A stretch of 64,000 bases of DNA from contig JABCTC010000018.1 in assembly GCA_018238545.1 (NCBI GenBank), positions 6,310 to 70,309 of the forward strand, read 5' to 3'. The notes beneath the pieces were generated by a model. The model saw only the letters and a program-made list of their open reading frames with translations, did no database searches and had not been told where the DNA came from. The position numbers and the translations under genes were made by a program. The DNA comes from Candidatus Heimdallarchaeota archaeon. GTDB taxonomy: Archaea; Asgardarchaeota; Heimdallarchaeia; Heimdallarchaeales; Heimdallarchaeaceae. Positions 6,619 through 64,000 of this stretch are shown in pieces (position 1 is the first letter of the stretch; each line of letters starts with the position of its first letter).

Positions 6619-6732
6619 AGACTCTTCTTTTTTATTTATTTCAATTTTCCACACAATTTATGTCAGATTATCCTTCTGGTTCAAAGACTCGGAATACTTA
6701 AGATGTACTAATTATATGAAGAGAATATTACT

Positions 6733-18736: not shown

Positions 18737-18741
18737 CTTTT

Positions 18742-37627: not shown

Positions 37628-38698
37628 ATGTCTTTTGAGATCATTAACTTCGTTCCAAAAGAAGCAAATGAAGAATTATTAGAATCTTACTTTGATTTTG
37701 CTGAAACAACGTTTATGGAGATTTATCCTACAGATCCTTTAGTTCCAAGAGTTCTTCATCTTAAGCTATTATTGATAACTAGAACAGGAGAGAAAGTAAT
37801 TAGAAAATTAGCTCGATCTAGTAAATCAGGAGAGATAATCGGTCGACTTTATCTAATGATTATTACTGAAGAAAACACTGGATTTAAAGAAAACAAACAT
37901 TCAGTTGAAATTCACATCAATGTTCTCAATGACTTGAGATATAAGAGTATAGTACAAGAATTCCTCATAGAAGCAATTAAGGAATTACAATGCTATGAAT
38001 ATGTAACAACAGTTGACACTTGCAGTTACTTAGAAAGAGATTGGGCTTTCTGGGAAGGATTAGGAGCTAAAATGGCTCTAGAAGGTGCACAAAATCGATT
38101 ATTCATGGAAGATATCGATTGGAGCATGATAAAAGAGTGGAGGCATGGAGGACATGAACTTGCTAAGAAAGAGCAAGTTGATCTTTTTTCCTTTGAAAGA
38201 TGTCCAGAAGAAATTATACTCGAATATACAACCACTTACAGTGAGATTATACGCTTAATGCCATTAGGTGAATTCGATTACATTCCTGAACCCACAACAC
38301 CCTTCACAAGACGAGAAAAAGAAGAAAATCATAAAAAAACAGACCACAAATGGTATACACTTGCTACAAGAGAAAAAAATGGAGAGATAAGTGGGTTGAC
38401 AGAGATTCTCTATACAGAATCCAGCCCCCATAAAGTTGAACAGATGCTAACAGGAGTAAAACCTGAATATCGAGGAAGAGGTTTGGGGAAATGGTTAAAG
38501 GCTGAAATGATGGTTTTCATAAAAAATGAATTCCCAGAAATTGAATTTATATCGACTGGAAATGCTGATATGAATGCACCCATGATTTCAATTAATGATA
38601 GGATGGGTTTCAAAAGAGTTCTCACAGAAAAATGTTATATAATAAAACTTGAAAAATTAAAAAAACTGATGTCTATCAATATTAATAAAGAGAAATAG
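37628..38698 (+). CDS. GNAT-family N-acetyltransferase domain protein
   Basis: C-terminal VKPEYRGRGLGKWLKAE is GNAT motif A (R/Q-x-x-G-x-G/A). An N-terminal region of about 230 aa has unknown function. Confidence 0.6.
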   Translation: MSFEIINFVPKEANEELLESYFDFAETTFMEIYPTDPLVPRVLHLKLLLITRTGEKVIRKLARSSKSGEIIGRLYLMIITEENTGFKENKHSVEIHINVLNDLRYKSIVQEFLIEAIKELQCYEYVTTVDTCSYLERDWAFWEGLGAKMALEGAQNRLFMEDIDWSMIKEWRHGGHELAKKEQVDLFSFERCPEEIILEYTTTYSEIIRLMPLGEFDYIPEPTTPFTRREKEENHKKTDHKWYTLATREKNGEISGLTEILYTESSPHKVEQMLTGVKPEYRGRGLGKWLKAEMMVFIKNEFPEIEFISTGNADMNAPMISINDRMGFKRVLTEKCYIIKLEKLKKLMSININKEK

Positions 38699-49200: not shown

Positions 49201-50593
49201 AAGTTCCTGTTTCATTCCAATTTGACCAATAATTTCCTTCATTTGTATTCACGTCATACCAAGTATTTACTGTATCACCGTACGCTTGTGAATCTTGCCC
49301 TATACTGTTGTTTATGAAGATATTATGATATATTCTGTTAGGGTTGGAACCGCCTAAATATAATCCATAACCATATTCCGATACTTCATTATAATTGTTT
49401 ACAAAAATATTGTTAGTTATATTGGAATAACTTGCCCAAAATGTATGTAGTCCATATCCATTGTTCTTACTACATGTATTATTATCAATGATAGAATAAT
49501 AAGGACCTAAGATATATATTCCAGCGTTGCTGTTATTCTCACAAGTATTATTTGTAACTACATTACTTGAATACCTAAGATACATTCCATAGATGTCGTT
49601 GTTATTGCAAGTGTTGTTGGTTACAGTTGTAGAATCAGATTCATAGACATATATCCCTGAATTGTCATTATTTGCACAGGTATTGTTCGCAACATTTGTA
49701 TTTGCAGCATATTCAATATAGATTCCATTCACATTTCCTGTACAAGTATTTTCTGCAACAGTTGGAGAAGAAGAAGCTTCAGCAATATGAATTCCGTTAT
49801 TACCGTTGTTCTCAATAGTATTGTTTCTTATTTCAGGATAAGCTGTCCAACGAATTCGTAGCCCATACCCAGTATTTTCTGAACAGGTATTGTCAGTCAC
49901 AGTTGCATTATTACCATTATAATCGATATATATACCTAGAGCATTACTTTCACAAGTATTGTTATCAATGATTACTGATGCACTATTATAACTGTATATT
50001 CCATTGCCTGAATTGTTTGAGCATATGTTGTTTGTTATGGTAGAATTAGTTGATTTCCATAGAACAATACCATCAGTATTGTCTGTACATACATTCCCGT
50101 CAATTGTAGTATTCAGACTTTGCAGTATGTACATTCCATATTGAGCATTATTTGCACAAGTATTATTTATTACTTTAGCTGTTCCCGCAGCAACACCAGT
50201 GATACGTATTCCATAGTTCAATCCATCTAAATAATTATCACGAATAACAAAATGCATTGTCGTACCTGTAACGTAAATAGCTGTGTCGTCAGTTGTTGTA
50301 ATGTTATAATTATTTATTATATACGGATCACCTTCACTTCCATCCCCTGAAGTACTAGAAGCTGCCAAAGTAGCATTATTCCATATATAAATATCTTCTG
50401 TAAGTTCTACGTAAGCCATCTTATTATAGTCTTGATCGTTAGGCATGTATACTTCACTATCAAAACTAGGTTCTACTGTGCTTGTATTAACCAAATTGAA
50501 ACTGATTGCAACACTCATAACTAAGCACAAAGCCAGAAAAATTGAAACTCCTTTTTTATAGGATCCAAAATATTTTTTTAAATTATTTATCAC
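46244..50593 (-). CDS. Giant cell-surface protein: signal peptide, right-handed beta-helix (NosD/pectin-lyase-like) domain, about forty EF-hand-like Ca-binding repeats, C-terminal TM anchor
   Basis: N-terminal hydrophobic signal (ISIFLALCLVMSVAISF). Residues 100-470 have repeated NNTC.(N)N..GIYI beta-helix rungs. Residues 480-1410 are tandem units of about 45 aa alternating DSDDDLMPDGWE and DPDGDGLTNLEEY, each fitting the 12-residue EF loop D-x-D-x-D-G-x-x-x-x-x-E. C-terminus SSIFLFASVLTLLALTFALRKRRN. Confidence 0.85.
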   Translation of the reverse strand: MINNLKKYFGSYKKGVSIFLALCLVMSVAISFNLVNTSTVEPSFDSEVYMPNDQDYNKMAYVELTEDIYIWNNATLAASSTSGDGSEGDPYIINNYNITTTDDTAIYVTGTTMHFVIRDNYLDGLNYGIRITGVAAGTAKVINNTCANNAQYGMYILQSLNTTIDGNVCTDNTDGIVLWKSTNSTITNNICSNNSGNGIYSYNSASVIIDNNTCESNALGIYIDYNGNNATVTDNTCSENTGYGLRIRWTAYPEIRNNTIENNGNNGIHIAEASSSPTVAENTCTGNVNGIYIEYAANTNVANNTCANNDNSGIYVYESDSTTVTNNTCNNNDIYGMYLRYSSNVVTNNTCENNSNAGIYILGPYYSIIDNNTCSKNNGYGLHTFWASYSNITNNIFVNNYNEVSEYGYGLYLGGSNPNRIYHNIFINNSIGQDSQAYGDTVNTWYDVNTNEGNYWSNWNETGTYAISGPGNGVDLYPLNVIDTDNDGIDDREEKYLYGTDPNNNDTDSDSMPDGWEVDNGLDPLVDDSALDPDGDSLTNLQEYTNNTDPHDNDSDDDGLLDNEEIVAGTDPNDNDTDNDLMPDGWEVDNSLNPLVDDSSLDPDSDGLDNYGEYIQGTDPNDNDSDDDLMPDGWEVDNGLDPLVDDSSLDPDGDGLTNIEEYTNNTDPNDNDSDDDLMPDNWEVDNGLNPLVDDSSLDPDSDGLDNLGEYTNGTDPQDSDSDDDLMPDGWEVDNGLDPLVDDSSLDPDGDTLTNLEEYTNDTDPNDNDSDNDGLLDNEEVAAGTDPNDSDSDDDGMPDGWEVDNSLNPLVDDSALDPDGDTLTNLQEYTAGTDPLDPDSDGDGLLDNEEVVAGTNPNDVDSDDDLMPDGWEVDNGLDPLVDDSSLDSDSDGLSNLEEYTNDTDPNDADSDNDLMLDGWEVDNSLNPLDASDASLDPDSDDLTNLEEYTNNTDPNDADSDNDLIPDGWEVDNGLNPLVDDSSLDSDSDNLTNLEEYTNDTDPNDADSDDDGLLDDEEIAWGTNPNDSDTDSDSMPDGWEVDNGLNPLVDDSSLDPDSDDLTNLEEYTIGTYPLDTDSDDDGFNDGLEVTLGTDPTDNTDYPSFYDFDNDGMNDIWEDQHGLNTEIDDSALDPDGDTLTNLEEYTNNTDPNNDDTDGDSMPDGWEVDNTLNPLVDDAYSDLDSDGLYNLDEYTIGTDPQDSDSDDDLMPDGWEVDNSLNPLSDDSALDPDGDTLTNLEEYTHGTNPQYWDTDYDSMWDDWEVEYGTNPLVHDGGEDPDADGLSNYEEYMNTNTDPLDSDTDDDLMPDGWEYDNGLDPLNPSDASSDLDGDGLTNLEEYSYNSDPNSTDSDYDGMPDGWEVDNGLDPSVNDAGYDPDGDTLTNLDEYYQNTNPNNSDTDGDGWSDSEELFTYGTDPTDPEDHPEDTNQSSIFLFASVLTLLALTFALRKRRN
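46360..49160 (-). repeat. Tandem coding repeats (thrombospondin-type-3-like / EF-loop calcium-binding units)
   Basis: About 20 near-identical units of about 135 nt. These produce the spurious Ser-rich antisense ORFs on the + strand (47496..48119 and others). Confidence 0.8.
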
Positions 50594-50840: not shown

Positions 50841-52067
50841 ATGATGTTAATTAAAGGGAAAGAATCAGCAAAATGGATAGAAACAACCATCCCTTTAATA
50901 CTTAATCCAGGAACAACAAAGCAGCTTTATTTGCAGAAAGCTCAAGCTAAGATCCTAGCTTTCGCTAAACAGTTGCTACCTTTTAAACAGCATAGTGCTT
51001 CAGCTCTACACTTCCACCATCTGGTCTATACAAAGTTCAAGTATCTAGGCATACAAAGTCAAGTACAAGAAGCGGTGCAGCGGAGAGTGTATGCAGCAAA
51101 ACGAGCGAAAACGTTCGCTCATCTACCTATGGAATTTAATTTTCCGCGGAGTGGGAGGCTCATTCTCTCCAAGAGAGGGAACGCACTTGTTAAACTCTCT
51201 CCTCTCAAACAACGTATAGCCGTACCTATCTTGATGAACGGTGGGTGGAGAAGAGTGGAAGAGCACAGAAAAGGAGGGTGGGAGGCTCACAGCTGTAAAG
51301 TGTTCAAAAGAAAACGTATCTGGGTTATGCATCTTATCATGCGTAAAGCACTCCCACTTCCCCAAGAAGTGGAAGGAACCATCGGTGTGGACATAGGAAG
51401 AAAGATCATGGCAGCAATCACGGTCAATCATCCTAATTTTCCCTTTGTTGAACAATATCTTGGGAAAGATCTGGCGTGGAAACAACACCAGTTCTATAAT
51501 CGTAGAAAAACCTTGCAAAAATATGCTGCGCAAGGAGATAGACGTGCACGGCGTGCACTCAACAGATTACGAAGAAAAGAAACAACTTATGTTCAAACCC
51601 GTTGTGCTCAACTAGCACACGAAATAGTAGACTTAGCTGTAATCACCCGTTCAGCTATAGTTTTGGAAAATCTTACGCATTTACGAAGAATGTGGACAAA
51701 ACAAGCGATGAAACGAAAGAGAGGAGGGAAGAAGACCAGACGTGCACTCAATCGCTGGTCATACAGTCTCTTTCATACTACTTTGACTCGAGTAGCACAA
51801 TTACACCATGTTCCTGTGGTATTTGTCCGTCCGCAATATACCAGTCAAACCTGCTCACAGTGTGGACATCGAAGTAAGAACTCACGAACCACTCGTGACC
51901 TATTTAGGTGTGTCAATTGTAATTTCACTGTTAACGCTGACCGCAATGCATCACGTAACCTAGCACTGCTAGGGCAAGTAGTTTTTGGTCTCCCCTTCTT
52001 CAATGCTTATCGATCTTTCCTTCCCGTTCCTACTGAGCGAAGAATCCTGCGTTCTTCAGTATCTTAG
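50841..52067 (+). CDS. tnpB: TnpB (IS605 OrfB-family RNA-guided nuclease-like transposon protein)
   Basis: RuvC-I IGVDIGRKIMAAI (Asp), RuvC-II AIVLENLTHL (Glu), a zinc finger CSQCGH...CVNCNF, and RuvC-III NADRNASRNLA (Asp). All catalytic residues are intact. Confidence 0.85.
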   Translation: MMLIKGKESAKWIETTIPLILNPGTTKQLYLQKAQAKILAFAKQLLPFKQHSASALHFHHLVYTKFKYLGIQSQVQEAVQRRVYAAKRAKTFAHLPMEFNFPRSGRLILSKRGNALVKLSPLKQRIAVPILMNGGWRRVEEHRKGGWEAHSCKVFKRKRIWVMHLIMRKALPLPQEVEGTIGVDIGRKIMAAITVNHPNFPFVEQYLGKDLAWKQHQFYNRRKTLQKYAAQGDRRARRALNRLRRKETTYVQTRCAQLAHEIVDLAVITRSAIVLENLTHLRRMWTKQAMKRKRGGKKTRRALNRWSYSLFHTTLTRVAQLHHVPVVFVRPQYTSQTCSQCGHRSKNSRTTRDLFRCVNCNFTVNADRNASRNLALLGQVVFGLPFFNAYRSFLPVPTERRILRSSVS

Positions 52068-52150: not shown

Positions 52151-52579
52151 ATGCAAATTTGTACAAAAATCAAGTTGATGAGCTATGAAATCTTAGATAT
52201 AGATCTAGAAAGCATAGATGACGACTCGTTGGAACTTATTGTAGATTATCTGAAAAAAAGTGAAATACAGGAATATCCTAAGGATCCTGTTCCTCCACGT
52301 GAAGCAATGCTTAAAGACATCAAACTAAAGCGAGAAGGAAAAGATAGTTTTCTAAGTGTTGTTTTGGATAAAAAAAGAGGACAAATCATAGCTAGAGCAA
52401 CAATTTCTGTGAAATTAGAAAATCACGTTGCATATAATCAAGCGAAGCATGTAGCAGATTTTGATCTAACAGTTTTGAAAGATTTTGTTCATTTAGAAAT
52501 CATTGAAAAACTATTCACATCTGTAATCAGTAAAGTGGAAAATTATGATTTTATATTTAACTTCTACAGTTTCTCTTAG
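52151..52579 (+). CDS. Hypothetical small acidic protein
   Basis: 142-aa ORF directly after the IS end, with no motifs. It could be spurious. Confidence 0.25.
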   Translation: MQICTKIKLMSYEILDIDLESIDDDSLELIVDYLKKSEIQEYPKDPVPPREAMLKDIKLKREGKDSFLSVVLDKKRGQIIARATISVKLENHVAYNQAKHVADFDLTVLKDFVHLEIIEKLFTSVISKVENYDFIFNFYSFS

Positions 52580-53910
52580 AATTTTTTATCAGTTTGATAT
52601 TTAGTTAATTTGAATATTTTAGACAATAACCATTCAAATGAACCTTTAAATTGAACCATATTCCATAGAAATGCAATTAGAAACCAGAATAGAACCATGA
52701 ACAATCCGAAAAGTATACTTGTCCAAATGTAGTTATTCCAACCAGGCATAATTGTATTCAATAACCATGCAACCAATTCCGATATTGGTCGTTCGAGTAG
52801 GAAGAATGTTAATGAGTTTCTACTAAACCTGAGAAAAATTGTTGAGAACTTCTTATCACTCTTCTGTAGATCCATTTTGTCCACTCGCTTATCAAACATT
52901 AATATCATTAATATTGATCCAACAACAATAAAGAATCCAATTTCGAACATCACGATAATATAATCAAAGAGAATATCATCTAGTAGGCCTATACTTTCAT
53001 AAATAGAATCAGGAATTAAGAAAGCAACAACTGCTGCAAGAAACCACCCAACACCTATCCAAATAAATTTGCGTATTTTCTTTTTAGTGGGATTGTCAGC
53101 TAAAACCATCCCAAAATAAGCTCCTATATAACCAAATCCTAGATAGGGTAAAATAGGAAAATAATTTCCTGCGAATACATCAATGAGATAAGCCACAAAG
53201 TAATTTCCATCTTGAATAGCACTGTCAAAATCATCATAGAAATATATTCGTAAAAAGGATACCAAGATAATTGCTATTCCGAGTGTTAACACTATAATTC
53301 TTCGATTCTTTTTCTTGTAGTTTTCTGCTTTTCTAAAGATGAGTGTGAATAGTAATCCCATTATTATTAGGTTCCAACCTAACATTGTGAATACTGAACC
53401 ATAGAGCATTTTCTCTGGTGAAACTTGATAAAATTGCCCTGTTCGGATAACACCTGCTAAAAAGGAATGGCTTATACTATGTGTCTCAAAATTCATGTTA
53501 AGAGGGCTCACTAAATAGGTATAAAGAAAATTAAGGAGTAAGAAAAAGACACCTAAGAAGCACCATCTTTTTCCGAAAGCCTTCCACGCGGGGTACTTTA
53601 CTTCATTCCTAAAGTTCTGCTCTAATCGCAGAAAACTTGAGTAAGTATTGACCACGGCTGAAATTAGGGCGAATAATCCTGCCCAATTTAAGACAACATA
53701 CATTATCATTAAGAAAACACTTAGATTTTCTAAATCGATTGTTGTTATCAAACCATAATGGTATACTGTACTATGAAGGAAAATTACTAGAATAATACCT
53801 AACGCACGGACATAATCAAAAACAAGCCATCGCTTAAATTTTCTTTCAGGTAGTTCTGATAACTCATTTTCTTTTGATAAAGCCTGATTTGTATTCTGCT
53901 CCAATTTCAT
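52576..53910 (-). CDS. Acyltransferase-3 / HGSNAT-like polytopic membrane acyltransferase
   Basis: N-terminal RWLVFDYVRALGIILVIFLHS matches the acyltransferase-3 signature (R..lD.lRg.ailaVv..H), followed by about 10 TM helices. Confidence 0.55.
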   Translation of the reverse strand: MKLEQNTNQALSKENELSELPERKFKRWLVFDYVRALGIILVIFLHSTVYHYGLITTIDLENLSVFLMIMYVVLNWAGLFALISAVVNTYSSFLRLEQNFRNEVKYPAWKAFGKRWCFLGVFFLLLNFLYTYLVSPLNMNFETHSISHSFLAGVIRTGQFYQVSPEKMLYGSVFTMLGWNLIIMGLLFTLIFRKAENYKKKNRRIIVLTLGIAIILVSFLRIYFYDDFDSAIQDGNYFVAYLIDVFAGNYFPILPYLGFGYIGAYFGMVLADNPTKKKIRKFIWIGVGWFLAAVVAFLIPDSIYESIGLLDDILFDYIIVMFEIGFFIVVGSILMILMFDKRVDKMDLQKSDKKFSTIFLRFSRNSLTFFLLERPISELVAWLLNTIMPGWNNYIWTSILFGLFMVLFWFLIAFLWNMVQFKGSFEWLLSKIFKLTKYQTDKKF

Positions 53911-53934
53911 GTAAAACGAGTTTATTTTGAGGGG

Positions 53935-55275
53935 CTAATTTAAAAAATCTTCCTCGAAGGTTCTTTGTATTCTCCTGAGTTTCTTATCAAAATCTTGTTT
54001 GAGAGATACATATCGAAAATCTAATTCAGGCATTTTACTGTCATGTTTAGAAAAAATTCTTTCCAAACTCTGTTGAATAGTTCTTTCTATTTCTTTCTTA
54101 ACGAGTTTTTTTGCATTAGCAACTAACTGAAGATTGATTGTCAGATTTTCAGGTGAAGTTTGTATCGCATTATATTCCTCAATACTTTCTGAGGAACTGA
54201 TTATAGATCTACGAATGTAATCAGGTAAGATAAATTGTAGTTCATCACTACCGATTTTTTTACCAAGGATGATGTCATCTGCTCGACCATGAACCTCTTT
54301 GATTACACGGAATTTAGAACCGCAAGAGCAAGGTTCTGGATCTATAGTTAGTAAATCATTAAGCTTGTATCTGATAATTGGCGTCTTGCGTTTAATGAAA
54401 TCAGTTACAACAACAAAACCAGGTTTCCCAGGTTCAACAGGTTCATTATTCTTATCTAGAACTTCAACTAAAGTTGTGTCTTCATTAATGTGCAATTTTC
54501 CATCCTTGCAGGGTAGAGCAATAAAACTTTCTGAGGATTTGTAGACTTCCACAACTGAACAATTGAAATCTTTCTCTACGATTTTCTTCACGTTTGATGA
54601 GAGCACTTCTCCATAGGAGATAATCAATAATGGAGACACTTTCAATGATCCTTCCTTCTTTGCTCTTGCTAAAACTTGCAAAACGGAAGGAGGTCCTGAG
54701 AGTAAATTTGGATTAAGTGCATTTAGTTTTTTAACAATAGCTTCTATCGTATCTAAAGGGCTTACGTAAGTTATACGGATTTTCCTCCCATCATGACCAA
54801 AACCAGGAGAGAAAACACGAAGAATAAAGGCAAGGTGAATTTTTCTTGTTTTAGGAAAAGGAAATCTAAAGAAAACTAACAATTGCATCAAAAAAGCTTC
54901 CATTTTAGAAACAAACTCGAGACCCCTATTACCACTTGTACCTGTTGACATGCCCACTAAATAGCCTCTGTAGTATTCACTAAAGTCACGACTTTGTTCT
55001 TTTTCTAGACAATGATCAATACACTCTTCTCTTGTTAATCCTACAGTATTCAACTGAGTAAAATTATCCATGAAAAGCTGTTTATTAATAAAAGGTAAAT
55101 TACTGAAATCAGTTAAATCATAATTATTGTAGAAAGTAGAATAAAACTTTGATTTCTTGCTTGCATAGTGTATCAATTTCTTAGTTTGTTTCCTTTGATA
55201 TCTCTTAATTTTCTCTTCATCCCAGCTCTTAAACCGACTGTTAACTCTCCACAGGAATCTCAAAGGATTGAACAT
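53935..55275 (-). CDS. CapK / coenzyme-F390-synthetase-like adenylate-forming enzyme
   Basis: P-loop-like GMSTGTSGNRG. C-terminal GKPGFVVVTDF...PIIRYKLNDLLTIDPEPCSCGSKFRVIKEVHGRADDII matches the CapK/PaaK C-terminal pattern (..RY..gD.....C.CG.......GR.dD.i). Confidence 0.65.
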   Translation of the reverse strand: MFNPLRFLWRVNSRFKSWDEEKIKRYQRKQTKKLIHYASKKSKFYSTFYNNYDLTDFSNLPFINKQLFMDNFTQLNTVGLTREECIDHCLEKEQSRDFSEYYRGYLVGMSTGTSGNRGLEFVSKMEAFLMQLLVFFRFPFPKTRKIHLAFILRVFSPGFGHDGRKIRITYVSPLDTIEAIVKKLNALNPNLLSGPPSVLQVLARAKKEGSLKVSPLLIISYGEVLSSNVKKIVEKDFNCSVVEVYKSSESFIALPCKDGKLHINEDTTLVEVLDKNNEPVEPGKPGFVVVTDFIKRKTPIIRYKLNDLLTIDPEPCSCGSKFRVIKEVHGRADDIILGKKIGSDELQFILPDYIRRSIISSSESIEEYNAIQTSPENLTINLQLVANAKKLVKKEIERTIQQSLERIFSKHDSKMPELDFRYVSLKQDFDKKLRRIQRTFEEDFLN

Positions 55276-55342
55276 ATTACACAGCTCAAATCATCCAATA
55301 TATCAATTCCGTTTGGATTAAAAAAAGGAAATAAAGGAAGAA

Positions 55343-57121
55343 TTACTTCTTCTTGGTTTTAGGTTTAGCTGTAGATTTCATCTTACTGTTAATAAGAGTA
55401 ATAGTTAACAAGAAAAATATCAGTTGTGAACCTAAAACAATTCCAGAAAAGATTAGTAACTCACCAATTTCGAGTGAAGCGAAGATACCAGTAGAAGTTT
55501 CTTCTATAACTTCAACAAACTCAACATTAGAGACAAGACTGTCTCCGTATTCATTTATAGCTACAATGGCGTAATAATAGTAACCGGTTGCATTAACAGT
55601 ATCAGTATAAGATGCAGTAGTAGAAGTATCTATTGGTGTTAATCCTGAAACTGAGGAGAATTGAGATGTTTCTCTAAATATTTCATAATTTGTTGCATCT
55701 TGTACTGATGACCAGCTCAAAAAAATATTTCCAACAGAGATAGGGTTTGGATTTATCTCATCTAAGACGGGTTGTATAGGAGTTCCTACGAATTTCTTGT
55801 AGAAAAGATCATTATCTGCACCTGAACCTAATAAACTTGGATCATTATCGAGGAAAATCGTATGCACATGACCTAAAGAATCAACTGCTAAATCTGGGTA
55901 GAAAGAACTAGCTATGTGGTTGTAAGTAAGAATAGCTAAAGAAGACCAAGTGTGTGTATTTAAATCAAGATACTTGAATAAGATATTATTACCTGTACCT
56001 CCTCCACCAACATCTGTAGTATCTTCCCAAATAACATAAATACTATTTGTACCGTCAACATCAACTTCTGGACGAAAAGCAGTTCCTGTACTCTCTGTTG
56101 AAACAATGTCTGATATTGACCATGAATCAAGACTGGAGTCATAGCTCTTATAGAAAATATCAGCGTCAGTTCCTGCTCCTTCATAATCTGAATAGTCGTA
56201 CCAAACAATGTGAATCATACCATCTACTCCTTTAGAAAGACTAGGTGATGCAGATGTGCTATCACTTTCGGAACTTATTAATTTTAAAGGAGACCAAGTA
56301 ATGAGATCTTTGTCCAGTTGTCGATAAAATACATCTTGGTCAGTACCAGCTCCTAAAACATCTGAGAGATCATTCCAAGCTATTATTACGTTTTCTTGTG
56401 AATCAAGTTGTATTTCTGGATTATATGCAGATTGTATACTTAAATCCGTAACTATTTCAGCTGCGGACCAAATCCCTACTGCAGATCTATGTTTGTAATA
56501 AATATCTTGATCCCCATCAACGATTATGATATCTGCAAAATCCTCCCAAACAACATGTGTTACACCATTTGAATCAGCTACTATCGATACGTAAGTAGAT
56601 GTACTGTCACTTTCTACTGAAACAAGTTCAACTGCTCCCCATCCAGAAGAAGTTTTTCCCCTATAACAGATATCTCTATCAGGACCTGATCCCAAAATAT
56701 CATCTGATTCAAGCCATACTATATGTATTGAGCCTGCTGAATCAATAGCAATTTCAGACACTTCAGAAAAACTTGAACTACCAGTTGATACAAGTTCTAG
56801 TTCAGACCAGCTCTTAGTTACATAATCAAATTTCTTATAAAACACGTCTAAGTCAGTTCCTGCACTCAGAATATCTTCACCTGAGGAGGTTACTATGTGT
56901 ATATCATTTCTGTTATCAACAGCGATTCTAGAATAAGAATTAGGTGTATCAAATTCTGTGGAAATTAGTTCCAGTGGTTCCCACCACCAAGAAGATAGAT
57001 CTTTGTTATTTACAGATTGTTCTGTCATATTCTCATATATCATTGAGTTTGTTAACGAAGATATTGGAATTATCATTAACAACATTATCATAAAAATACT
57101 AGCAATTCTTTTCAATTTCAC
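55343..57121 (-). CDS. Surface protein: signal peptide, about 7 beta-propeller-like repeats, FN3-like domain, C-terminal TM helix + Lys-rich tail
   Basis: MKLKRIASIFMIMLLMIIPISS signal. Seven units of about 55 aa of the form W.xLElvStxS....S.iA.Ds.G.iHivW.d.sDiLGsGtD.DifYk. FN3-like segment PISVGNIFLSWSS...YEIFRET...YYYAIVAINEYGDS. C-terminus LLIFSGIVLGSQLIFFLLTITLINSKMKSTAKPKTKKK. Confidence 0.75.
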   Translation of the reverse strand: MKLKRIASIFMIMLLMIIPISSLTNSMIYENMTEQSVNNKDLSSWWWEPLELISTEFDTPNSYSRIAVDNRNDIHIVTSSGEDILSAGTDLDVFYKKFDYVTKSWSELELVSTGSSSFSEVSEIAIDSAGSIHIVWLESDDILGSGPDRDICYRGKTSSGWGAVELVSVESDSTSTYVSIVADSNGVTHVVWEDFADIIIVDGDQDIYYKHRSAVGIWSAAEIVTDLSIQSAYNPEIQLDSQENVIIAWNDLSDVLGAGTDQDVFYRQLDKDLITWSPLKLISSESDSTSASPSLSKGVDGMIHIVWYDYSDYEGAGTDADIFYKSYDSSLDSWSISDIVSTESTGTAFRPEVDVDGTNSIYVIWEDTTDVGGGGTGNNILFKYLDLNTHTWSSLAILTYNHIASSFYPDLAVDSLGHVHTIFLDNDPSLLGSGADNDLFYKKFVGTPIQPVLDEINPNPISVGNIFLSWSSVQDATNYEIFRETSQFSSVSGLTPIDTSTTASYTDTVNATGYYYYAIVAINEYGDSLVSNVEFVEVIEETSTGIFASLEIGELLIFSGIVLGSQLIFFLLTITLINSKMKSTAKPKTKKK

Positions 57122-57291
57122 TGAAGTTCACCAAATACAACTGTAATGTTCTTAATCTATAAATATTCTGCTAACCTTTAAGGATAAAATTCCATTAAAA
57201 AATCAAAACATCAGAATAAAACCATTCAATGATTAGATTGAAAGTATTATTTTATATTGTAAAACAAAAGGAAAAATGAAAAGAAGAAGAA

Positions 57292-59076
57292 TTACTTTTT
57301 CTTCTTTCCTGTTTTAGGTTTGGACGTAGATTGAATTTTACTATTAATAAGAGTAATAGTTAGCAAGAAAAATATCAGTTGTAAGCCTAGAACAATTCCA
57401 GAAAAGATTAGTAACTCGCCAATTCCGAGTGAAGAAAAGATACCTGTAGAAGTTTCTTCTATGACTTCAACAAACTCAACATTTGAGACAAGGCTTTCTC
57501 CGTATTCATTTGTCGCTACTACAGCGTAATAATAGTACCCGGTGGCATTAACAGTGTCAGTATAAGATGTTAATGTAGAAGTGTCTATTGCCGTCAATCC
57601 TGAAACTGAGGAGAATTGAGATGTTTCTCGATATATTTCATAATTTATTACATCTTTTGCTGATGACCAGCTCAAAGAAATATTTCCAATAGAGAGAGGA
57701 TTTGGGTTTATTTCAGCTAAGATTGGTTGCATAGGTGTTCCTACAAATTTCTTGTAAAAAAGGTCCCAATCTGAACCAGAGCCTAGTAAACTTCCATCAG
57801 TATCAAGAAAAATAGCATGAACATGTCCTAAGGAGTCAACTGCTAAATCTGGATTAGTAGAAGCAGATGCATGATCATAAGTAAGAATAGTTCGAGAAGA
57901 CCAAGTGTGTGTATTTAAATCAAGATACTTAAAAAAGATATTAGTACCAATACCCACGCCACCAACAGCTAAAGAATCTTGCCAAATAACATAAACATAT
58001 TCTGTACCATAAACATCAATCTCTGCATTAAAAGAACTTCCAGTATTCGCGGTTGAAACAACTTCCGTGACGGACAACGAATCTAGATTGGAATCATAAT
58101 ACCTATAGAGAATATCAGAGTCAGTTCCTGAGCCCAAGATATCAGAAGAATCTTGCCAAACAATATGGAGCTGACCTTCTACACCTTTAGAGATTTTAGG
58201 TCCTGTAGAGCTGAGATCACTTCCAGAACTAATTAATTTAATGGGAGACCAAGTGATGAGGTCTTTATTCAGTTTTCGATAGAAAACATCTCCGTCAGGA
58301 CCAGAACCTAAAATATCTGTGAGATCATACCAAACAATAAAAATATTTTCTTGGGAATCAAGTTGAATATCTGGATTATATGTGGAAGATGTACTCATAT
58401 CAGTAACTATTTCAGCTGCTGACCATATTCCTGCTGCAGATCTATGTTTGTAATAAATATCTTGATCCCCATCAGCAATTAAGTAATTTGCAAAATCCTC
58501 CCAAATCACATGTGCGACACCATTTGAATCAGCTATAATCGCTAAGTAAGTTGATGTACTGTCACTTTCTGTTGAAACAAGTTCAGTAGATCCCCATCCA
58601 GAAGAAGTTTTTTGCCTATAACAGATATCTCTATCGGTACCTGAACCCAAAATGTTATCTGATTCAAGCCAAGCTATATGTACGGTTCCCGATGGATCAA
58701 CTGCAATTTCTGATACTTCAGAAGCACCCGAACTATCTGTTGAAACAAGTTCAAGTTCAGACCAGCTCTTTGTCTCATAAATATATTTCTTATAAAAAAC
58801 ATCTCTATCAGTTCCTGCACTCAAAATATCATCAGTGGAGTAGGTTATAACATGTATATTATTCTGGATATCAATAGCAATTTTAGGTACATAATTATTG
58901 GCATCAGATTCAGCAGAGAGAAGCTCTAAGGGTTCCCACCACCAAGAAGATAGATCATTATCAATTACGTTCTGATTTGTCATATTATCATAAATCTTTG
59001 AGTTTGTTAACGAAGAAATAGGAATTATCATTAACAACATTAGCATAAAAACACAAGCAATTCTTTTCACTTTCAC
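57292..59076 (-). CDS. Surface beta-propeller-repeat / FN3 / TM-anchored protein (paralog)
   Basis: Same architecture as 55343..57121 and about 70% identical. Ends ...LINSKIQSTSKPKTGKKKK. Confidence 0.75.
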   Translation of the reverse strand: MKVKRIACVFMLMLLMIIPISSLTNSKIYDNMTNQNVIDNDLSSWWWEPLELLSAESDANNYVPKIAIDIQNNIHVITYSTDDILSAGTDRDVFYKKYIYETKSWSELELVSTDSSGASEVSEIAVDPSGTVHIAWLESDNILGSGTDRDICYRQKTSSGWGSTELVSTESDSTSTYLAIIADSNGVAHVIWEDFANYLIADGDQDIYYKHRSAAGIWSAAEIVTDMSTSSTYNPDIQLDSQENIFIVWYDLTDILGSGPDGDVFYRKLNKDLITWSPIKLISSGSDLSSTGPKISKGVEGQLHIVWQDSSDILGSGTDSDILYRYYDSNLDSLSVTEVVSTANTGSSFNAEIDVYGTEYVYVIWQDSLAVGGVGIGTNIFFKYLDLNTHTWSSRTILTYDHASASTNPDLAVDSLGHVHAIFLDTDGSLLGSGSDWDLFYKKFVGTPMQPILAEINPNPLSIGNISLSWSSAKDVINYEIYRETSQFSSVSGLTAIDTSTLTSYTDTVNATGYYYYAVVATNEYGESLVSNVEFVEVIEETSTGIFSSLGIGELLIFSGIVLGLQLIFFLLTITLINSKIQSTSKPKTGKKKK

Positions 59077-59180
59077 TGTAATTCACCAAATACAACTGTA
59101 ATGTTCTTAATCTATAAATATTCTGCAAAACTTTGGGAAAAACATATAATCGGCTATTTAATGGATTAGTTTGAAAGAAA

Positions 59181-59611
59181 ATGAGCGTCAAAAAGGAAAT
59201 TTCTTTTCCTATATGGTCATCCGTTATGATTTTAGAAATGATAATTATGATGGTTCAAGCCATAATATTTGGTTCGTTAATATACATTATTCCTTGGTGT
59301 TGGTGTATAATACAACCACTTCCAATTCCAGCTGTTCTTCAAATCATTGTTACAGACTGTCTCGCAATTTCTATATTTCTTATATTTGTTATCTACTCTC
59401 GAAGGGGGGTTTTCCTCAAAAAAGTCTATATGGTCTGTTGAGATTACTTAACATCATTTTCAGCGTAGTTCTAACAATTTGTTTCTTCATTGATATTCAA
59501 GGATTTGAATTACACCTGAGTGGATATTTACTTGTATATTCTCTTCCCTTTTGTTTCGTGATACCTCTAATATCATTGGTTTTACTACTAAAAAGCAAGA
59601 AGAAAGCTTGA
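59181..59611 (+). pseudogene. Small polytopic membrane protein gene disrupted by a frameshift in a G6 tract (paralog of 59683..60123)
   Basis: The N-terminal half reads in frame 0 (MSVKKEISFPIWSS...VIYSRRGVF-stop) and the C-terminal half in frame 2 (...GGFPQKSLYGLLRLLNIIFSVVL...LLLKSKKKA). Both halves align to the intact paralog (MSFLVWSS...IFYSRKTYFPNLRLYVLLRIINIIVSAIL...FLIKSKNTD). The frame switch is at gggggg, 59404..59409; inserting one G restores a single ORF. Confidence 0.55.
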
Positions 59612-59682
59612 GATTAGAAATTCCTTGTAGTTTTCTAGAATGATACTGGAAAGATTTTTAAACATTTATTAATTCAAATTTT

Positions 59683-60123
59683 TTGGTAAATATGAACGAA
59701 AGAACAGAGATGTCGTTCCTTGTTTGGTCATCTTTTATTGTATCAGAAATGGTATTCATGATCCTTCAATCTTTTATATTTCCACTATCAATTACTGGAA
59801 TTTTAATTTGTTCATGCCTTCGATTTGATTTCATCTTTTCCTATCAAATTTTCATAATCATAATTGATATTCTTATATTCTCAACATTCTGTTTTGCTAT
59901 ATTTTACAGTAGAAAAACATACTTTCCAAATTTGAGATTATATGTTTTATTGAGAATAATAAACATAATTGTAAGTGCAATATTATTGGGTATCTTCCTC
60001 TGGGTTATACGAAATAAAATACTATCTTTGACTGATTATATTCTTACATTTTCTTTGATTTTATGCTTCTTAATGCCCCTCTTAACATTGATATTTCTAA
60101 TTAAAAGCAAAAATACAGATTAG
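59683..60123 (+). CDS. Small polytopic membrane protein (4 TM), intact paralog
   Basis: 146 aa with four hydrophobic segments and a Lys-rich C-terminus. Confidence 0.55.
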   Translation: MVNMNERTEMSFLVWSSFIVSEMVFMILQSFIFPLSITGILICSCLRFDFIFSYQIFIIIIDILIFSTFCFAIFYSRKTYFPNLRLYVLLRIINIIVSAILLGIFLWVIRNKILSLTDYILTFSLILCFLMPLLTLIFLIKSKNTD

Positions 60124-60146
60124 CAAAAAAACTTTTTAATAAACAA

Positions 60147-60557
60147 ATGAATCAATACACGACATTATTCGTTGGTGTTATCATGATAGGTCGAAGTATA
60201 AACTGTTATATCTGTGGATCCACCAAGATCAAAGAAACGTATCGAAGCAAGTACGGAAGGGAACGAATTATTCAATCCAATTTTGGGAGGCGAATGTATT
60301 GTTCTAAGGAATGTAAGATGATGGGAGTTTGGAAAAGAAAAATGATTGAGGGCATTATAGCTATAATTATCTTCACTATCGGTGAAGTTTCTCTACTTTA
60401 TGTTAATCTACGATGGGATGCTGATTGGATGATAATTGCAAATAGTATTTTAATTCCTCTTGTTGGAGTTGTTATTGGTTCTTTAGTTTTGTTCCAAGGA
60501 ATTAAAGGTAAGAGACTGAAGGAAGAGTTTGAATTAAGATCCTATAATGGGGTTTAA
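60147..60557 (+). CDS. Small membrane protein with N-terminal Cys motif (CYIC...CSKEC) and 2 TM helices
   Basis: 136-aa ORF. A zinc-ribbon-like spacing is followed by IIAIIIFTIGEVSLLYV and ILIPLVGVVIGSLVLF. Confidence 0.4.
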   Translation: MNQYTTLFVGVIMIGRSINCYICGSTKIKETYRSKYGRERIIQSNFGRRMYCSKECKMMGVWKRKMIEGIIAIIIFTIGEVSLLYVNLRWDADWMIIANSILIPLVGVVIGSLVLFQGIKGKRLKEEFELRSYNGV

Positions 60558-60572
60558 TCATAAAACTATTTC

Positions 60573-61103
60573 GTGTTTTCCAATATTTATAGACTAATCT
60601 TAAAAAGTATAAGCATTATAATTAATGTAGATAGAATGAAAGAAACAAAGTATTCCATGTCAGGTTTTATGAAAATCTTCAAGATGCCAATAATGACAGA
60701 ATTAACTTTATTATTATTTGTGATTATATTTTTTGAAAGTTTTTTCTTAACCTTAAAACTTGATGGAAATTTAATTTGTACAGAGTATAAATTTAGTTCA
60801 GGTCTTCTTGTTATTCTCTTGTTTACTTCATTATTTTCTTTTGCAAATTTTGGCAATATTATAACTGAAGATGCAAAGAGATCCGTTTTTCGAACTTTCA
60901 TGATAACAAGAGGATTAGCTATTACTTATTCGATTATAAGAAGAATAACAATAACATTTTATCATTTTAACTACTGTGGTTGGGTAAATTATTGGTACTA
61001 TCTTTTAGGGGATATTTTAATTCTAATATTGATTTTTGAATATGGATATGCAATAACCTATCACATAAGAACGAAGTATAAAACTATAGAAAAAAAAGCA
61101 TAA
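60573..61103 (+). CDS. Hypothetical polytopic membrane protein
   Basis: 176 aa with 4-5 hydrophobic segments. Confidence 0.4.
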   Translation: MFSNIYRLILKSISIIINVDRMKETKYSMSGFMKIFKMPIMTELTLLLFVIIFFESFFLTLKLDGNLICTEYKFSSGLLVILLFTSLFSFANFGNIITEDAKRSVFRTFMITRGLAITYSIIRRITITFYHFNYCGWVNYWYYLLGDILILILIFEYGYAITYHIRTKYKTIEKKA

Positions 61104-61114
61104 GAGAAGAGAGA

Positions 61115-62938
61115 TTACTTCTTCTTCTTACCTGTTTTCTTACCTGACTTTTTTGATGCAGATTTCTTACTCTTTGATGAGAGTAGGTAATACAAAATTA
61201 CAGCAATTAAAATCTCAGCACCTAGTAGGATCCCTCCTAAAATTAGTAACATATTCCAGTCAAAATTGTCAAAGAAACCAGGACCGTCTGATTCACTTAA
61301 GATTTCAACATAAACAACATTAGATAAAACACTATCACCATAATCAGAAACGGCAACTACAGCATAATAGTAGGTATTGGGAGTGGTTATAGTATCTACA
61401 AAACTACCGCTTAAACTATTCCCTATAGATGTTAAACTAGATATGTCTGTAATAAATGTCGTATCTTTATATATTTTATAAGAGGTTGCTCCAAGTGTTT
61501 CCACCCACCTGAGATTAACTTGGGTATTAGTTGTGCTTTTAGGATAGATCTCTAACAAAAATGGACTGGAAGGAGAACCAACAAATTTCTTGTAAAATAA
61601 GTCATAATCAGTTCCTGCTCCATCAAAATCTGTATTGTCTGCCCACAAAGCGTGAATATAACCCTTTGAATCAGCTGTTAAGCTATACATGTACTGAGAA
61701 CTCCAGTCTATACTTTCACTTGATACATAAGTGGGTGGAGACCATTCATCAGACCCAAATAATTTGGTTTTATGGTATAACCTATAGGTTTCAACTCCAA
61801 AGTATAGATCTTCATAAATGATATGAAGATTATCAAATAGATCTACACAGATATCTGAACGATCTGTTTGTCCTAGACTATCATCTGTGATAATTTCTGT
61901 TGTTAACGACCATTGATCTTGAACAGAATCCCAACTTGCATAGTATAAATCATCGAGTAAATCTGAATCATAAGAAGGTATTTGATCACTCCAAATAATA
62001 TGAACAGAATTTTGTGAATCTGAGCATATAGAAGGATAAGAAGAAAGCTCGTCACTTTCAGGTGAAAGTAGTATGAGTGGATAATCCCAGAGACCGGTGT
62101 TCAGATCTTTTTTATAGTAATATATGTCAATATCAGTTCCATCAGAGTTAAAGTCATGACTTTCCATCCACACAAAATGAGCTATGTTGTCTGAACTAAC
62201 TGTAATAGCAGCAGATGTTGATGCACTATCACTCAAAAGTGAAATTAATTCAGGGGATGACCATAAACCTGTACTGATTGAACGTGTCTGATAGAATACG
62301 TCCATATCAGCCCCTACTGAACCATAGGGAGTCATATCTGTATATACTACATGCACATTACCTGAAGAATCTACATCCATGTCAGGAAGATAAGCAATAG
62401 CTAAACTTTGTGATGTTACAACCTCGACTGGTGACCAAGTATCTGTTATATTATTGTAGTTTATGTAAAATAAGTCTTCATCACTTCCACTACTTAGCAA
62501 ATCATTAGTATTATCGCTCCAGACAATGTGTATGTTATCTTGTCCATCGATGACTATCTGTGCATCTCTACAAAAAGTACTAGCAGTACTATCTACAGAA
62601 ATGAGAAATGGAGAACTCCATACTTCAGTTGTAGAATCCCATTTCATGTACCATATATCACTATCCGTTCCCGATATTGAACCATAATCTTGCTTATCTC
62701 GCCAAACTGCATGAATATTTTCTTGACTATCAATTGCCATTTCTGGGTACCAGGATTCAAGCCCACTTGTTGTTGTCAGAACTTCTGTTTCTGTCCAGTA
62801 CCATTCTGAATAGTCATAATTTGTCAATGAATGATCCTGTTCAACACCGTTTTCTAAAGATAGACCTTTACTCGAAAATGAAAATGATGTTACAAAGAGC
62901 AGTATCATTAAAATACATGCTAATTTTTCTTTCTTCAT
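61115..62938 (-). CDS. Surface beta-propeller-repeat / FN3 / TM-anchored protein (divergent paralog)
   Basis: MKKEKLACILMILLFVTSFSFSS signal. Repeats IHAVWRD...GTDSDIWY, IHIVWSD...GSDEDLFY and others. FN3-like ...VNLRWVE...YKIYKDT...YYYAVVAVSDYGDS. C-terminus LLILGGILLGAEILIAVILYYLLSSKSKKSASKKSGKKTGKKKK. Confidence 0.75.
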   Translation of the reverse strand: MKKEKLACILMILLFVTSFSFSSKGLSLENGVEQDHSLTNYDYSEWYWTETEVLTTTSGLESWYPEMAIDSQENIHAVWRDKQDYGSISGTDSDIWYMKWDSTTEVWSSPFLISVDSTASTFCRDAQIVIDGQDNIHIVWSDNTNDLLSSGSDEDLFYINYNNITDTWSPVEVVTSQSLAIAYLPDMDVDSSGNVHVVYTDMTPYGSVGADMDVFYQTRSISTGLWSSPELISLLSDSASTSAAITVSSDNIAHFVWMESHDFNSDGTDIDIYYYKKDLNTGLWDYPLILLSPESDELSSYPSICSDSQNSVHIIWSDQIPSYDSDLLDDLYYASWDSVQDQWSLTTEIITDDSLGQTDRSDICVDLFDNLHIIYEDLYFGVETYRLYHKTKLFGSDEWSPPTYVSSESIDWSSQYMYSLTADSKGYIHALWADNTDFDGAGTDYDLFYKKFVGSPSSPFLLEIYPKSTTNTQVNLRWVETLGATSYKIYKDTTFITDISSLTSIGNSLSGSFVDTITTPNTYYYAVVAVSDYGDSVLSNVVYVEILSESDGPGFFDNFDWNMLLILGGILLGAEILIAVILYYLLSSKSKKSASKKSGKKTGKKKK

Positions 62939-63109
62939 CTAAAACACTAATACCCATATTGATACATCCTATCTAAAAGTGTTATTCACTAAATTTCTAA
63001 AGAATATTGAAAAAGGAAATGAAAAGAAGAACTACTTTTGCAATCAAACTACATTGCATAATACAACAATTTATCTTGTTTTTCTGAATCTTGAACTTTT
63101 TCTGTGTTT

Positions 63110-64000
63110 TCACTGGTGTTTGAACCAGTCTACTGTTTCTTTGATAGCTACAGTATGGTCAGTATATTCTGTTGTATTAAATGTTGAAGCATATTTTGTT
63201 CCGTCAATTATAAACGGGTATTTCCACTCATAATTTAATTCTTTTAGTTCTTTCACGATAGGAACTAACATAGATAGAATCTTAATTGTGCTTTCACTTA
63301 ATACTTTCATCTTGGGCTCTTGATTCAACTCTTCAAATATCATAGTGATGAATTCTCGACCTGTAACAGCTTCTGCTCCTTCGACATGGAATATTTGCCC
63401 ATAAGAATTTGGGTTCTCCGATGTTGTTACCATTCCTTTAGCTGCATCTCGTATATAGATCATTGAATGTTTCTTATCTAGATCTACCAACCATGTTGCT
63501 GATTTGCCTTTAACAGGATTTTCTAGTAGTGGTTTAGTAAAACCATTAACAACATTAGGACCATAGAAATCTCCAAAACGTACAATAACAGCATTGATAT
63601 CTCCTTTAGTGTGAGCTTCTAGTATTTGTTTTGCTAAACGTATCCGAAGTTTTCCCTTCTTACCTTGAGCATTAAGTGGGTGTTCTTCAGATATCTTATC
63701 TCCTTGCATTTTTCCATACATGTACAGATTATCTGCAAAAACCAGATTAGATCCAACTTCCTTAACAGCTGATAGAATGTTATTGTTAATAATTGGAAAC
63801 TCTTTTAGCCATTTTGTATAATTCACGTTAGCACAATGATAAACTACTTCCGCTCCTTGAATTGCTTCTATAGTTTCTTTCTGTTCCATTAAATCAGCTT
63901 GTCTGATTTCTACATTGATATCTTGAAACAATTTCTTTGCTCTCTGAGTGTTTCTTGTTACTGCAATTACGGATCTTTTTCTCTTCGCTAGTTCAAAAAC
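63110..64000 (-). CDS. NAD-dependent epimerase/dehydratase (extended SDR) family protein, N-terminus beyond window end
   Basis: The frame remains open to position 64000 (...VFELAKRKRSVIAVTRNTQRAKKLFQDINVEI...). It has the NAD(P)-binding extended-SDR layout (...VIVRFGDFYGP...), so the Rossmann GxxGxxG lies upstream of the window. Confidence 0.65.
   Translation of the reverse strand, partial: VFELAKRKRSVIAVTRNTQRAKKLFQDINVEIRQADLMEQKETIEAIQGAEVVYHCANVNYTKWLKEFPIINNNILSAVKEVGSNLVFADNLYMYGKMQGDKISEEHPLNAQGKKGKLRIRLAKQILEAHTKGDINAVIVRFGDFYGPNVVNGFTKPLLENPVKGKSATWLVDLDKKHSMIYIRDAAKGMVTTSENPNSYGQIFHVEGAEAVTGREFITMIFEELNQEPKMKVLSESTIKILSMLVPIVKELKELNYEWKYPFIIDGTKYASTFNTTEYTDHTVAIKETVDWFKHQ

Follow-up and report, generated by a model that had tools for sequence, protein, structure and literature searches.

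A variable Heimdallarchaeial locus encoding paralogous, predicted membrane-anchored beta-propeller proteins

Introduction

In a 64,000-nucleotide stretch of DNA from a Candidatus Heimdallarchaeota archaeon, an Asgard archaeon of the family Heimdallarchaeaceae (GenBank assembly GCA_018238545.1, contig JABCTC010000018.1, positions 6,310 to 70,309; hereafter, the window), three paralogous genes, which we call A, B and C, encode predicted cell-surface proteins with a seven-bladed beta-propeller, an FN3 domain and a C-terminal transmembrane (TM) helix. They are interleaved with four small membrane-protein genes, S1 to S4, and flanked by genes for an F390 synthetase-related enzyme, an acyltransferase-3 (AT3) and an NAD-dependent epimerase. 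Here we characterize this locus computationally, compare it with related loci in other metagenome-assembled genomes (MAGs), and argue that its propeller proteins probably function as surface coat or adhesin proteins.

Eukaryotes have no closer known prokaryotic relatives than the Asgard archaea, whose cell surface is of wider interest for that reason. The cultured Asgard archaea have no S-layer; their surface instead bears densities without order, thought to mediate such cell-cell contacts as bear on eukaryogenesis (PMC9834061).

Results

Three paralogs share a propeller, an FN3 domain and a TM anchor

The listing of open reading frames (ORFs) places A, B and C in the same orientation on the minus strand (Table 1), and their products have a common layout, in which a hydrophobic signal sequence is followed by seven repeats, an FN3 domain, a single C-terminal hydrophobic helix and a Lys-rich tail. 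B is 74% identical to A, and C aligns with A from end to end at 35% identity. The repeats measure about 57 residues (range 55-59) and align cleanly, those of A starting at W47 and at residues 105, 161, 218, 276, 334 and 392. An AlphaFold2 model, built from an alignment of 50 family members, shows seven four-stranded blades (aa 45-445), a beta-sandwich (aa ~452-540) and a TM helix (mean predicted local distance difference test score, pLDDT, 86.5; predicted template modelling score 0.80), and the FN3 domain is also matched by sequence to FN3 chains in the PDB (3mpc, E 4.5e-5; 7jgt, E 1e-4). The propeller begins about 15 residues after the signal peptide, with no N-terminal domain before it. Elsewhere in the window lies a decayed fourth copy, which is similar to C (tblastn, E 4e-10). 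An earlier sequence-only reading of the same DNA had described three such paralogs, a propeller with an FN3 domain and this decayed copy, and on each of these points our results agree with it.

The ectodomains are acidic (D+E 15-16%, K+R 4%). Each blade carries a near-invariant acidic loop, W-x-D-x-x-D-x-x-G-x-G-x-D-x-D-(I/V)-(F/Y)-Y, and this loop, between strands 3 and 4, is the most conserved of all; variation is greatest in blades 4-6 and in three other loops (those between strands 1 and 2 and between strands 2 and 3, and the linker from blade to blade). Downstream of the stop codons of A and C, within about 20 nt, are runs of T7 and T8, respectively, and T4-T5 runs follow B; since these resemble archaeal terminators, the propeller genes appear to be separate units.

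At or just before the start of the TM helix we also noted a motif, G-x-F-x-S-L-x-x-G-E (window 55382-55490 in A), of which G545, F547, S549 and E554 are conserved in the family alignment, as is a glutamine, Q566, within the helix itself. The motif could be a processing or partner-interaction signal. In an NCBIfam scan, none of the curated models for C-terminal sorting signals (archaeosortase, PGF-CTERM) matched A or C at E<=0.1.

The propellers form a very large family whose named members are mainly Heimdallarchaeial

The propeller proteins of the window fall below every curated Pfam and NCBIfam cutoff. A matches BNR_4 (PF15892) with 26.2 bits (E 6e-6; cutoff 27.3), B and C do not match it, and 27 of the 50 aligned members do so at E<=0.01. 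SBBP (PF06739) is matched at the same threshold by 12 of the 50, at best with E 9.6e-12, and by none of A, B and C at E<=0.1 in a Pfam scan, which indicates a relation at the level of the superfamily and not membership. The seven repeats of 55-59 residues and the seven-bladed model agree with the SBBP-type architecture, in which seven blades are built from repeats of about 55-60 residues, and NCBIfam returned sub-threshold matches to the PDIAV motif lipoprotein (PDIAV_lipo, E 7e-8) and to a Leptospira SBBP lipoprotein.

A profile search of all PDB sequences retrieved FN3 domains only and no solved propeller, and a viral structure library gave only generic propeller matches. With the model as query, Foldseek returned a generic mixture of sialidases, AA5 oxidases, PLL lectins, CylK and GH145, among which CylK and the lectins are the best structural neighbours and the Ca2+-propeller of CylK the closest fold. 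Across the 50 members, the propeller columns that are invariant or at least 90% conserved hold W, D, H, Y, G, S, E, N, F or V; when the level is lowered to at least 80%, E, H and Y at positions in the repeat register, together with N73 and K443, make up the conserved polar and aromatic residues. We found no conserved Arg in the propeller and no polar constellation specific to one blade. The Asp-box, S-x-D-x-G-x-T-W, has no strict match in A, B or C and a single relaxed match (in B), and the Pfam BNR model matches none of the three.

More than 330 close homologs were recovered; every named one is annotated as 'hypothetical' and comes from an Asgard MAG, mostly of Heimdallarchaeota, the closest being proteins of MAGs named 'Candidatus Heimdallarchaeaceae/Heimdallarchaeota archaeon', and a few of the named matches in protein searches are from Thorarchaeota or the 'Asgard group'. 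When one genome per GTDB species was scanned with a profile from 14 closer sequences, relatives appeared only in Heimdallarchaeota MAGs (AB_125 included) and in two others, which bear the titles Promethearchaeati and Promethearchaeota. The 50-member profile, searched against 1.84 billion cluster representatives, matched 2,909 proteins at E<=1e-30 and 21,310 at E<=1e-10, including giant proteins of up to about 6,000 residues with several propellers and long FN3 arrays; to the weaker of these matches the FN3 domain alone may contribute much. The propeller-FN3 protein is thus a very large module family and not a local oddity. The sequence-only reading had proposed an uncharacterised propeller family; this stands insofar as the family has no curated model of its own and no known function, and has to be qualified by its relation to BNR_4 and SBBP.

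Small membrane-protein genes accompany the propeller genes

The genes between B and C, on the opposite strand, encode two 4-TM paralogs (S2 and a frameshifted S1, which when repaired is 39% identical to it), a protein with a Cys motif (S3) and another membrane protein (S4), just as the sequence-only reading had them. None has a meaningful Pfam or NCBIfam match. S1-S4 stand next to propeller genes in at least eight MAG loci. Loci other than the window are designated by L and a number: S3 lies beside propeller genes in L010, L015, L018, L024 and L027-L029, and S4 has an 81% identical ortholog in L001 and also occurs in L011. Two 146-residue ORFs beside propeller genes in L007 and L009, of the same length as S1 and S2, were set aside for lack of tblastn similarity. 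That propeller gene and small genes move together as a unit is seen most clearly in L018, where a tandem duplication (1358-7244, period 2,961 bp) comprises a 125-residue S3-like and a 146-residue S2-like gene opposite a 592-residue propeller gene, with a third, partial propeller copy upstream. Since S2 and S3 are duplicated there together with the propeller gene, the small membrane proteins are the best candidates for real partners of the propellers. The S2 family is narrow, at 10 clusters that are all at least 73% identical, and set against thousands of propellers this means that most propeller genes are without such a partner; the distant propeller genes have no S-type neighbours.

Intact S1 orthologs of 139 residues are found in L027-L029, with 94% amino-acid and 98% DNA identity. 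At the site of the lesion they read AAAAGGGGTTTTT where the window has AAGGGGGG-TTTT (over a longer reading, CGAAAAGGGGTTTTTCC in L027-L029 and CGAAGGGGGG-TTTTCC in the window), from which the lesion amounts to two A>G substitutions and a 1-nt deletion. Either S1 was inactivated recently or the assembly is in error here. With G4T5 in the orthologs and G6T4 in the window, the tract is no conserved site of slippage.

The locus is rearranged in almost every MAG

Neighbourhoods of this kind are found in many Heimdallarchaeota MAGs, and are rearranged in almost each of them. Read along the minus strand, the window has the order epimerase, C, then S4, S3, S2 and S1 on the opposite strand, B, A, F390-like, AT3, a probable GNAT remnant, TnpB and a giant beta-helix protein. 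L001/L010, with a 93% identical ortholog of A, runs epimerase, S4, S3, two propeller copies, F390-like, AT3 and giant gene, without C, S1, S2 or TnpB. In L027-L029 (F390-like 94.6% identical), AT3 and F390-like are followed by one A-like copy, S1, S2, S3, an ORF of 80-88 residues and a 43% identical copy, within other flanks. L018 (F390-like 86%) has the unit of S3, S2 and an oppositely oriented 592-residue propeller gene two to three times over, followed by F390-like and AT3. C orthologs (83-84%) or a C fragment occupy other positions in L011, L015 and L021, and in L002 (A ortholog 59%) one copy is fused and decayed. MAGs with 82-95% identity in their flanking genes thus differ in copy number and gene order.

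The copies are also mosaic. The upstream copy of L001 and the downstream copy of L003 are 90-100% identical over most of the propeller and 74-84% in the later blades, and the FN3-TM part of the former resembles A and B instead; identity between B and this L001 copy likewise changes along the length. Comparison of A with its 93% ortholog shows long stretches without a single synonymous difference beside others in which the proportion of synonymous differences (pS) is 0.26-0.28. The overall ratio of nonsynonymous to synonymous change (dN/dS), at 0.28-0.40, indicates purifying selection with recombination, and no gene-wide positive selection was detected; all of these ORFs are intact. Variable copy number and order, decayed copies in the window and in L002, and mosaic identity together bear out the family turnover that had been suggested from the decayed copy.

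The flanking enzymes are separable from the propeller genes

The two enzymes downstream of A are what the sequence-only reading took them for, a CapK-like adenylate-forming enzyme and an acyltransferase-3. The former scores 285.5 bits against TIGR02304 (NCBIfam cutoff 251.9) and the latter 39.3 bits against Acyl_transf_3 (cutoff 31) over profile positions 4-325 of 326, with about eight or more hydrophobic segments. AT3 enzymes are known to transfer acyl groups across the membrane, and a plausible activity of the pair is to produce an activated acyl donor and pass it across in this way.

Six loci (the window, L010, L015, L018, L019 and L027) have the pair immediately downstream of a propeller gene, and in L020 and L022 it is within a few kb of one. 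The two genes are adjacent in a Lokiarchaeial MAG as well, at 51% and 33% identity, and the 13 kb read there include no propeller gene. Distant F390-like homologs (41-43% identity) end an archaeal cluster of genes for coenzyme A (CoA) biosynthesis in L031 and L032 (56-8421). This cluster encodes a GHMP kinase (presumably pantoate kinase), phosphopantothenate synthetase, ketopantoate hydroxymethyltransferase, ketopantoate reductase, a pyridoxal phosphate-dependent (PLP) decarboxylase and Dfp, followed by a DAGK-type lipid kinase; one copy is labelled Zixibacteria, although its locus is gene-for-gene identical to the Heimdallarchaeota one. The cluster hints at a CoA- or acyl-linked role for the F390-like family in Heimdallarchaeota. 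Given the T7 run after A, the Lokiarchaeial pair and the homologs in CoA clusters, we treat F390-like and AT3 as an autonomous two-gene module; an operon with A was considered and downgraded to a shared neighbourhood on account of the T-runs and of the Lokiarchaeial pair, beside which the stretch read has no propeller gene. The epimerase gene adjoins a TetR gene in all related loci, with 82-88% identity across them, and looks like conserved flanking sequence. The functional tie between these genes and the surface proteins, as glycan-modification genes, that the sequence-only reading had drawn is therefore not sustained. A literature search on F390-synthetase-like enzymes and acyltransferases in polysaccharide loci gave nothing useful.

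No sign of heavy glycosylation, switching or defence

The same reading had pictured the surface display as glycosylated and possibly switchable, and neither property found support. The ectodomains of A, B and C contain 2, 3 and 1 N-x-S/T sequons, at or below the 5.1, 5.8 and 4.6 expected from shuffled sequences, on which ground we rejected heavy N-glycosylation. Between 52,000 and 64,000 of the window there are no inverted repeats, and the only frameshift is in S1, at a tract that its orthologs do not conserve, so we rejected a phase-variation switch. We likewise rejected a defence or polymorphic toxin-immunity locus. PADLOC gave no matches for the propeller proteins, S2, S4, F390-like or AT3, a weak match to a TM segment only for S3, and matches to Cas12-type models for TnpB alone; no toxin domain follows the TM helix of the propeller proteins.

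Other features of the window

Beyond AT3 lies a second predicted class of surface protein, with an N-terminal NosD/beta-helix region and a long array of TSP3 repeats of the Ca2+-binding type (Table 1); its ortholog in L001 has 1402 residues and is 66% identical. NosD/beta-helix proteins occur near propeller genes in the window and in L001, L003, L007, L008 and L009, a recurrence that suggests islands of surface-protein genes. TnpB and the probable GNAT-like remnant, of which a full-length paralog lies at 37628-38698, are both missing from the orthologous spot in L001, where 216 nt separate AT3 from the giant gene; TnpB is thus an insertion at the edge of the locus, and the two look like an IS200/IS605-type insertion beside a gene remnant.

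Further away, 10612-13332 (minus strand) encodes a 906-residue UDP-glucose/GDP-mannose dehydrogenase into which is inserted an intein that carries a LAGLIDADG homing-endonuclease domain (Intein_splicing and LAGLIDADG_3 matches between the central and C-terminal dehydrogenase domains). At 17003-23040 (minus strand), the gene of a 1432-residue protein, which ends in an FtsX-like permease domain, runs for about 97 nt into the beginning of a 611-residue double ABC-ATPase gene, and in L002 the same kind of pair (FtsX-like protein of 1417 residues and ABC protein) is likewise near a propeller gene.

Table 1. Positions of the locus components and neighbouring features in the window.
Feature	Position	Strand	Description
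Propeller gene A	55343-57121	-	592 aa; 93% ortholog in L001
A, signal peptide	aa 1-~26		
A, seven-bladed propeller	aa 45-446 (nt 55784-56989)		
A, FN3 domain	aa 450-540 (nt 55502-55774)		
A, TM segment	aa 552-580 (nt 55382-55468)		helix aa 552-583 in AlphaFold2 model
A, C-terminus			Lys-rich tail, ~12 residues, predicted cytoplasmic
Propeller gene B	57292-59076	-	594 aa; by position, counterpart of L001 upstream copy (63% identical)
Propeller gene C	61115-62938	-	607 aa; same architecture as A; 83-84% orthologs in L011 and L021
Decayed fourth copy	33861-34151	-	signal peptide and blade 1; no start codon, stop at end
S1	59181-59611	+	four hydrophobic segments; frameshifted at G6/T4 run 59404-59413
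S2	59683-60123	+	4-TM paralog of S1
S3	60147-60557	+	N-terminal CxxC...CxxxC zinc-ribbon-like motif and 2 TM segments
S4	60573-61103	+	3-4 TM; likely start Met22, from L001 ortholog
F390 synthetase-related adenylate-forming enzyme	53935-55275	-	TIGR02304, full length
AT3 membrane enzyme	52576-53910	-	Acyl_transf_3 (PF01757); 24 nt downstream of F390-like gene
NAD-dependent epimerase/dehydratase	63110-64000	-	ORF continues beyond window end
NosD/right-handed beta-helix and bacterial TSP3 protein	46244-50593	-	1449 aa; C-terminal TM helix and basic tail
TnpB (Cas12f1-like TNB)	50841-52067	+	
Probable GNAT-like remnant ORF	52151-52579	+	142 aa; matches only N-terminal ~130 aa of 351-356-aa GNAT-like proteins

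Discussion

The ORFs, domains and synteny bear out the array of surface-anchored propeller-FN3-TM proteins with interleaved small membrane genes that the sequence-only reading had outlined. We propose that A, B and C would be type-I single-pass membrane proteins, each displaying an acidic seven-bladed propeller of the SBBP/BNR_4-like, CylK-like kind at the cell surface, with one FN3 domain as its stalk, about 10 residues from the membrane; from general domain sizes, the FN3 domain and propeller would presumably reach some 8-10 nm. The acidic loop of each blade most likely binds structural Ca2+, by analogy with the blade-junction sites of CylK, and the propeller would serve for binding and not for catalysis. 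The locus evolves as cassettes of a propeller gene and divergent small membrane genes are duplicated in tandem, as copies recombine and as copies decay, which leaves neighbouring strains with different sets of surface paralogs. The F390-like/AT3 pair and the epimerase are separate modules that lie next to it. On balance the propeller proteins are probably surface coat or adhesin proteins, forming part of a non-crystalline coat or adhesion layer. We are less confident that the blade loops are structural Ca2+ sites, which by analogy is what they most likely are, and that S1-S4, as candidate partners, work together with the propeller proteins.

Among characterized proteins, the propeller of CylK, a cyanobacterial Friedel-Crafts alkylating enzyme, has unusually long internal loops that fold over its outside, with a Ca2+ site at each junction between blades, and its active site requires an N-terminal RTX-like Ca2+-binding beta-roll domain, seated against the propeller's top face, that supplies Arg105 (PMC8916777). 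Its C-terminal propeller (PDB 7RON) is 13% identical to the window protein, and since the required N-terminal domain is absent there, CylK-like catalysis is excluded. CylK is moreover not described in that paper as membrane-anchored, unlike the window proteins with their signal peptide, FN3 domain and TM anchor. With the SBBP/BNR_4, PDIAV-motif and Leptospira LipL53-type lipoproteins, which are also surface-exposed prokaryotic propellers, the window proteins have the blade motif P-x-I-A-V-D-x-x-G-N-x-H/Y-V in common; they differ from SBBP-type lipoproteins in having a C-terminal TM helix and not a lipobox, 57-residue blades and an extra acidic loop.

Closer to the organism, among cultured Lokiarchaeial Asgard archaea, 'Ca. 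L. ossiferum' has a single membrane bearing unordered surface densities and no S-layer (PMC9834061), and a preprint on Nerearchaeum marumarumayae, likewise Lokiarchaeial, proposes, in its cell-surface section, that proteins made of a propeller, a fibronectin-like spacer and an anchor are the irregular T-shaped densities of about 12 nm seen there (10.1101/2025.07.22.663070). As that section presents them, these proteins share the domain logic of ours (signal peptide, propeller, fibronectin-like spacer, membrane anchor) and differ in being called WD40, with 5-9 blades, and in coming from another class; the section reports no locus-level analysis. Neither the FG-GAP repeats nor the specific structural relationship of integrin alpha-like proteins was found. 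A fragment of a Methanosarcina surface-layer protein (PDB 1L0Q) is archaeal too and combines a seven-bladed YVTN propeller with an Ig-like domain, yet at Foldseek rank 43 it is a much weaker structural match than CylK, has PKD in place of FN3, and showed no sequence similarity in our searches. Archaeal S-layer proteins self-assemble into a two-dimensional lattice and usually carry many N-glycosylation sites, in contrast to the one to three sequons of each window ectodomain.

Several points weigh against this interpretation. The Ca2+ sites are argued from motif and fold similarity, and a profile-sequence search found no match to CylK at the level of sequence. The coat or adhesin role, for every member of the family, is argued from genes and a model, and a literature search found no image of a Heimdallarchaeial cell envelope. 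The weak BNR_4 matches, together with the sialidase and GH145 matches of Foldseek, leave room for an enzymatic role. Finally, S1-S4 are linked to propeller genes only within one syntenic clade, so their proximity could be inherited gene order and not function.

The enzymatic alternative holds that the propellers are membrane-anchored glycoside hydrolases, lyases or sialidase-like proteins that degrade polymers at the cell surface. It can draw on the sub-threshold match of A and the more numerous matches in the family to BNR_4, and on the sialidases, AA5 oxidases and GH145 among the top Foldseek matches. Sialidases have six blades, a conserved Arg triad and a Tyr/Glu nucleophile pair. The window propellers have seven blades in the model, no Asp-box and, across the 50 members, no invariant Arg or Glu/Tyr constellation outside the repeat register; they keep the same motif in every blade, as is typical of binding or structural propellers, and their best structural neighbours are CylK and lectins. 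The lack of a conserved Arg, of a blade-specific polar constellation and of an Asp-box argues against a sialidase-like or other single-active-site enzyme, and a structural or multivalent binding propeller fits better; we therefore regard an enzymatic role as quite unlikely. Still lower is the standing we give to a glycosylated, phase-switchable display or cell-contact system, with homopolymer tracts as switches of expression and with the acyltransferase, ligase and epimerase acting on its glycans. Variable copy number, the position of the F390-like/AT3 pair directly downstream of propeller genes in six loci and near them in two more, and the homopolymer frameshift in S1 would all accord with it. 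Against these stand the few sequons and the absence of inverted repeats, the T-runs that separate A from the pair, the Lokiarchaeial pair without a propeller in the 13 kb read, the distant F390-like genes in CoA clusters, and the tie of the epimerase to a TetR gene in all loci; the frameshift itself is in a small gene and consists of a deletion and two substitutions at a site where orthologs have G4T5.

A sensor or receptor, in which the propeller would bind a ligand and signal through the TM helix to the small membrane proteins, with the cytoplasmic zinc ribbon of S3 as transducer or regulator, strikes us as equally improbable. The joint duplication of S2, S3 and the propeller gene in L018 and the recurrence of S1-S4 near propeller genes in at least eight loci are in its favour, as are the conserved E554 and Q566 at or in the TM segment, the predicted cytoplasmic side of the Cys4 motif of S3, and the propeller sensor of a hybrid two-component system among the Foldseek matches. 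Against it, the 10 S2 clusters leave most of the thousands of propeller genes without a partner, the cytoplasmic tail has only about 12 Lys-rich residues, and scans with Pfam, NCBIfam and PADLOC found no known signalling domain. The coat or adhesin reading could be carried further: the family might be the principal building block of the S-layer-less coat of Heimdallarchaeia, a Ca2+-dependent 'lollipop' layer whose paralogs are reshuffled between strains through duplication of cassettes and recombination and which serves for attachment to partners or particles and as a virus-receptor interface, with the co-duplicated S1-S4 as dedicated membrane partners of the TM helix. We offer this extended version as a tentative idea that is rather unlikely to hold.

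There are precedents for the fold class, for the architecture class and for the idea of an Asgard cell coat made of such proteins, and the finding reveals no new molecular principle and would not surprise a specialist. The new elements are a Heimdall-specific 57-residue blade with an acidic loop, the close structural tie to the CylK propeller, and a cassette-like, rapidly rearranging locus. As a very large, lineage-expanded family with a confident model and a probable dependence on Ca2+, these proteins offer testable Heimdallarchaeia candidates for the surface structures of Asgard archaea, and the differences between the loci of close relatives bear on strain-level diversity of the cell surface and on virus-host interactions.

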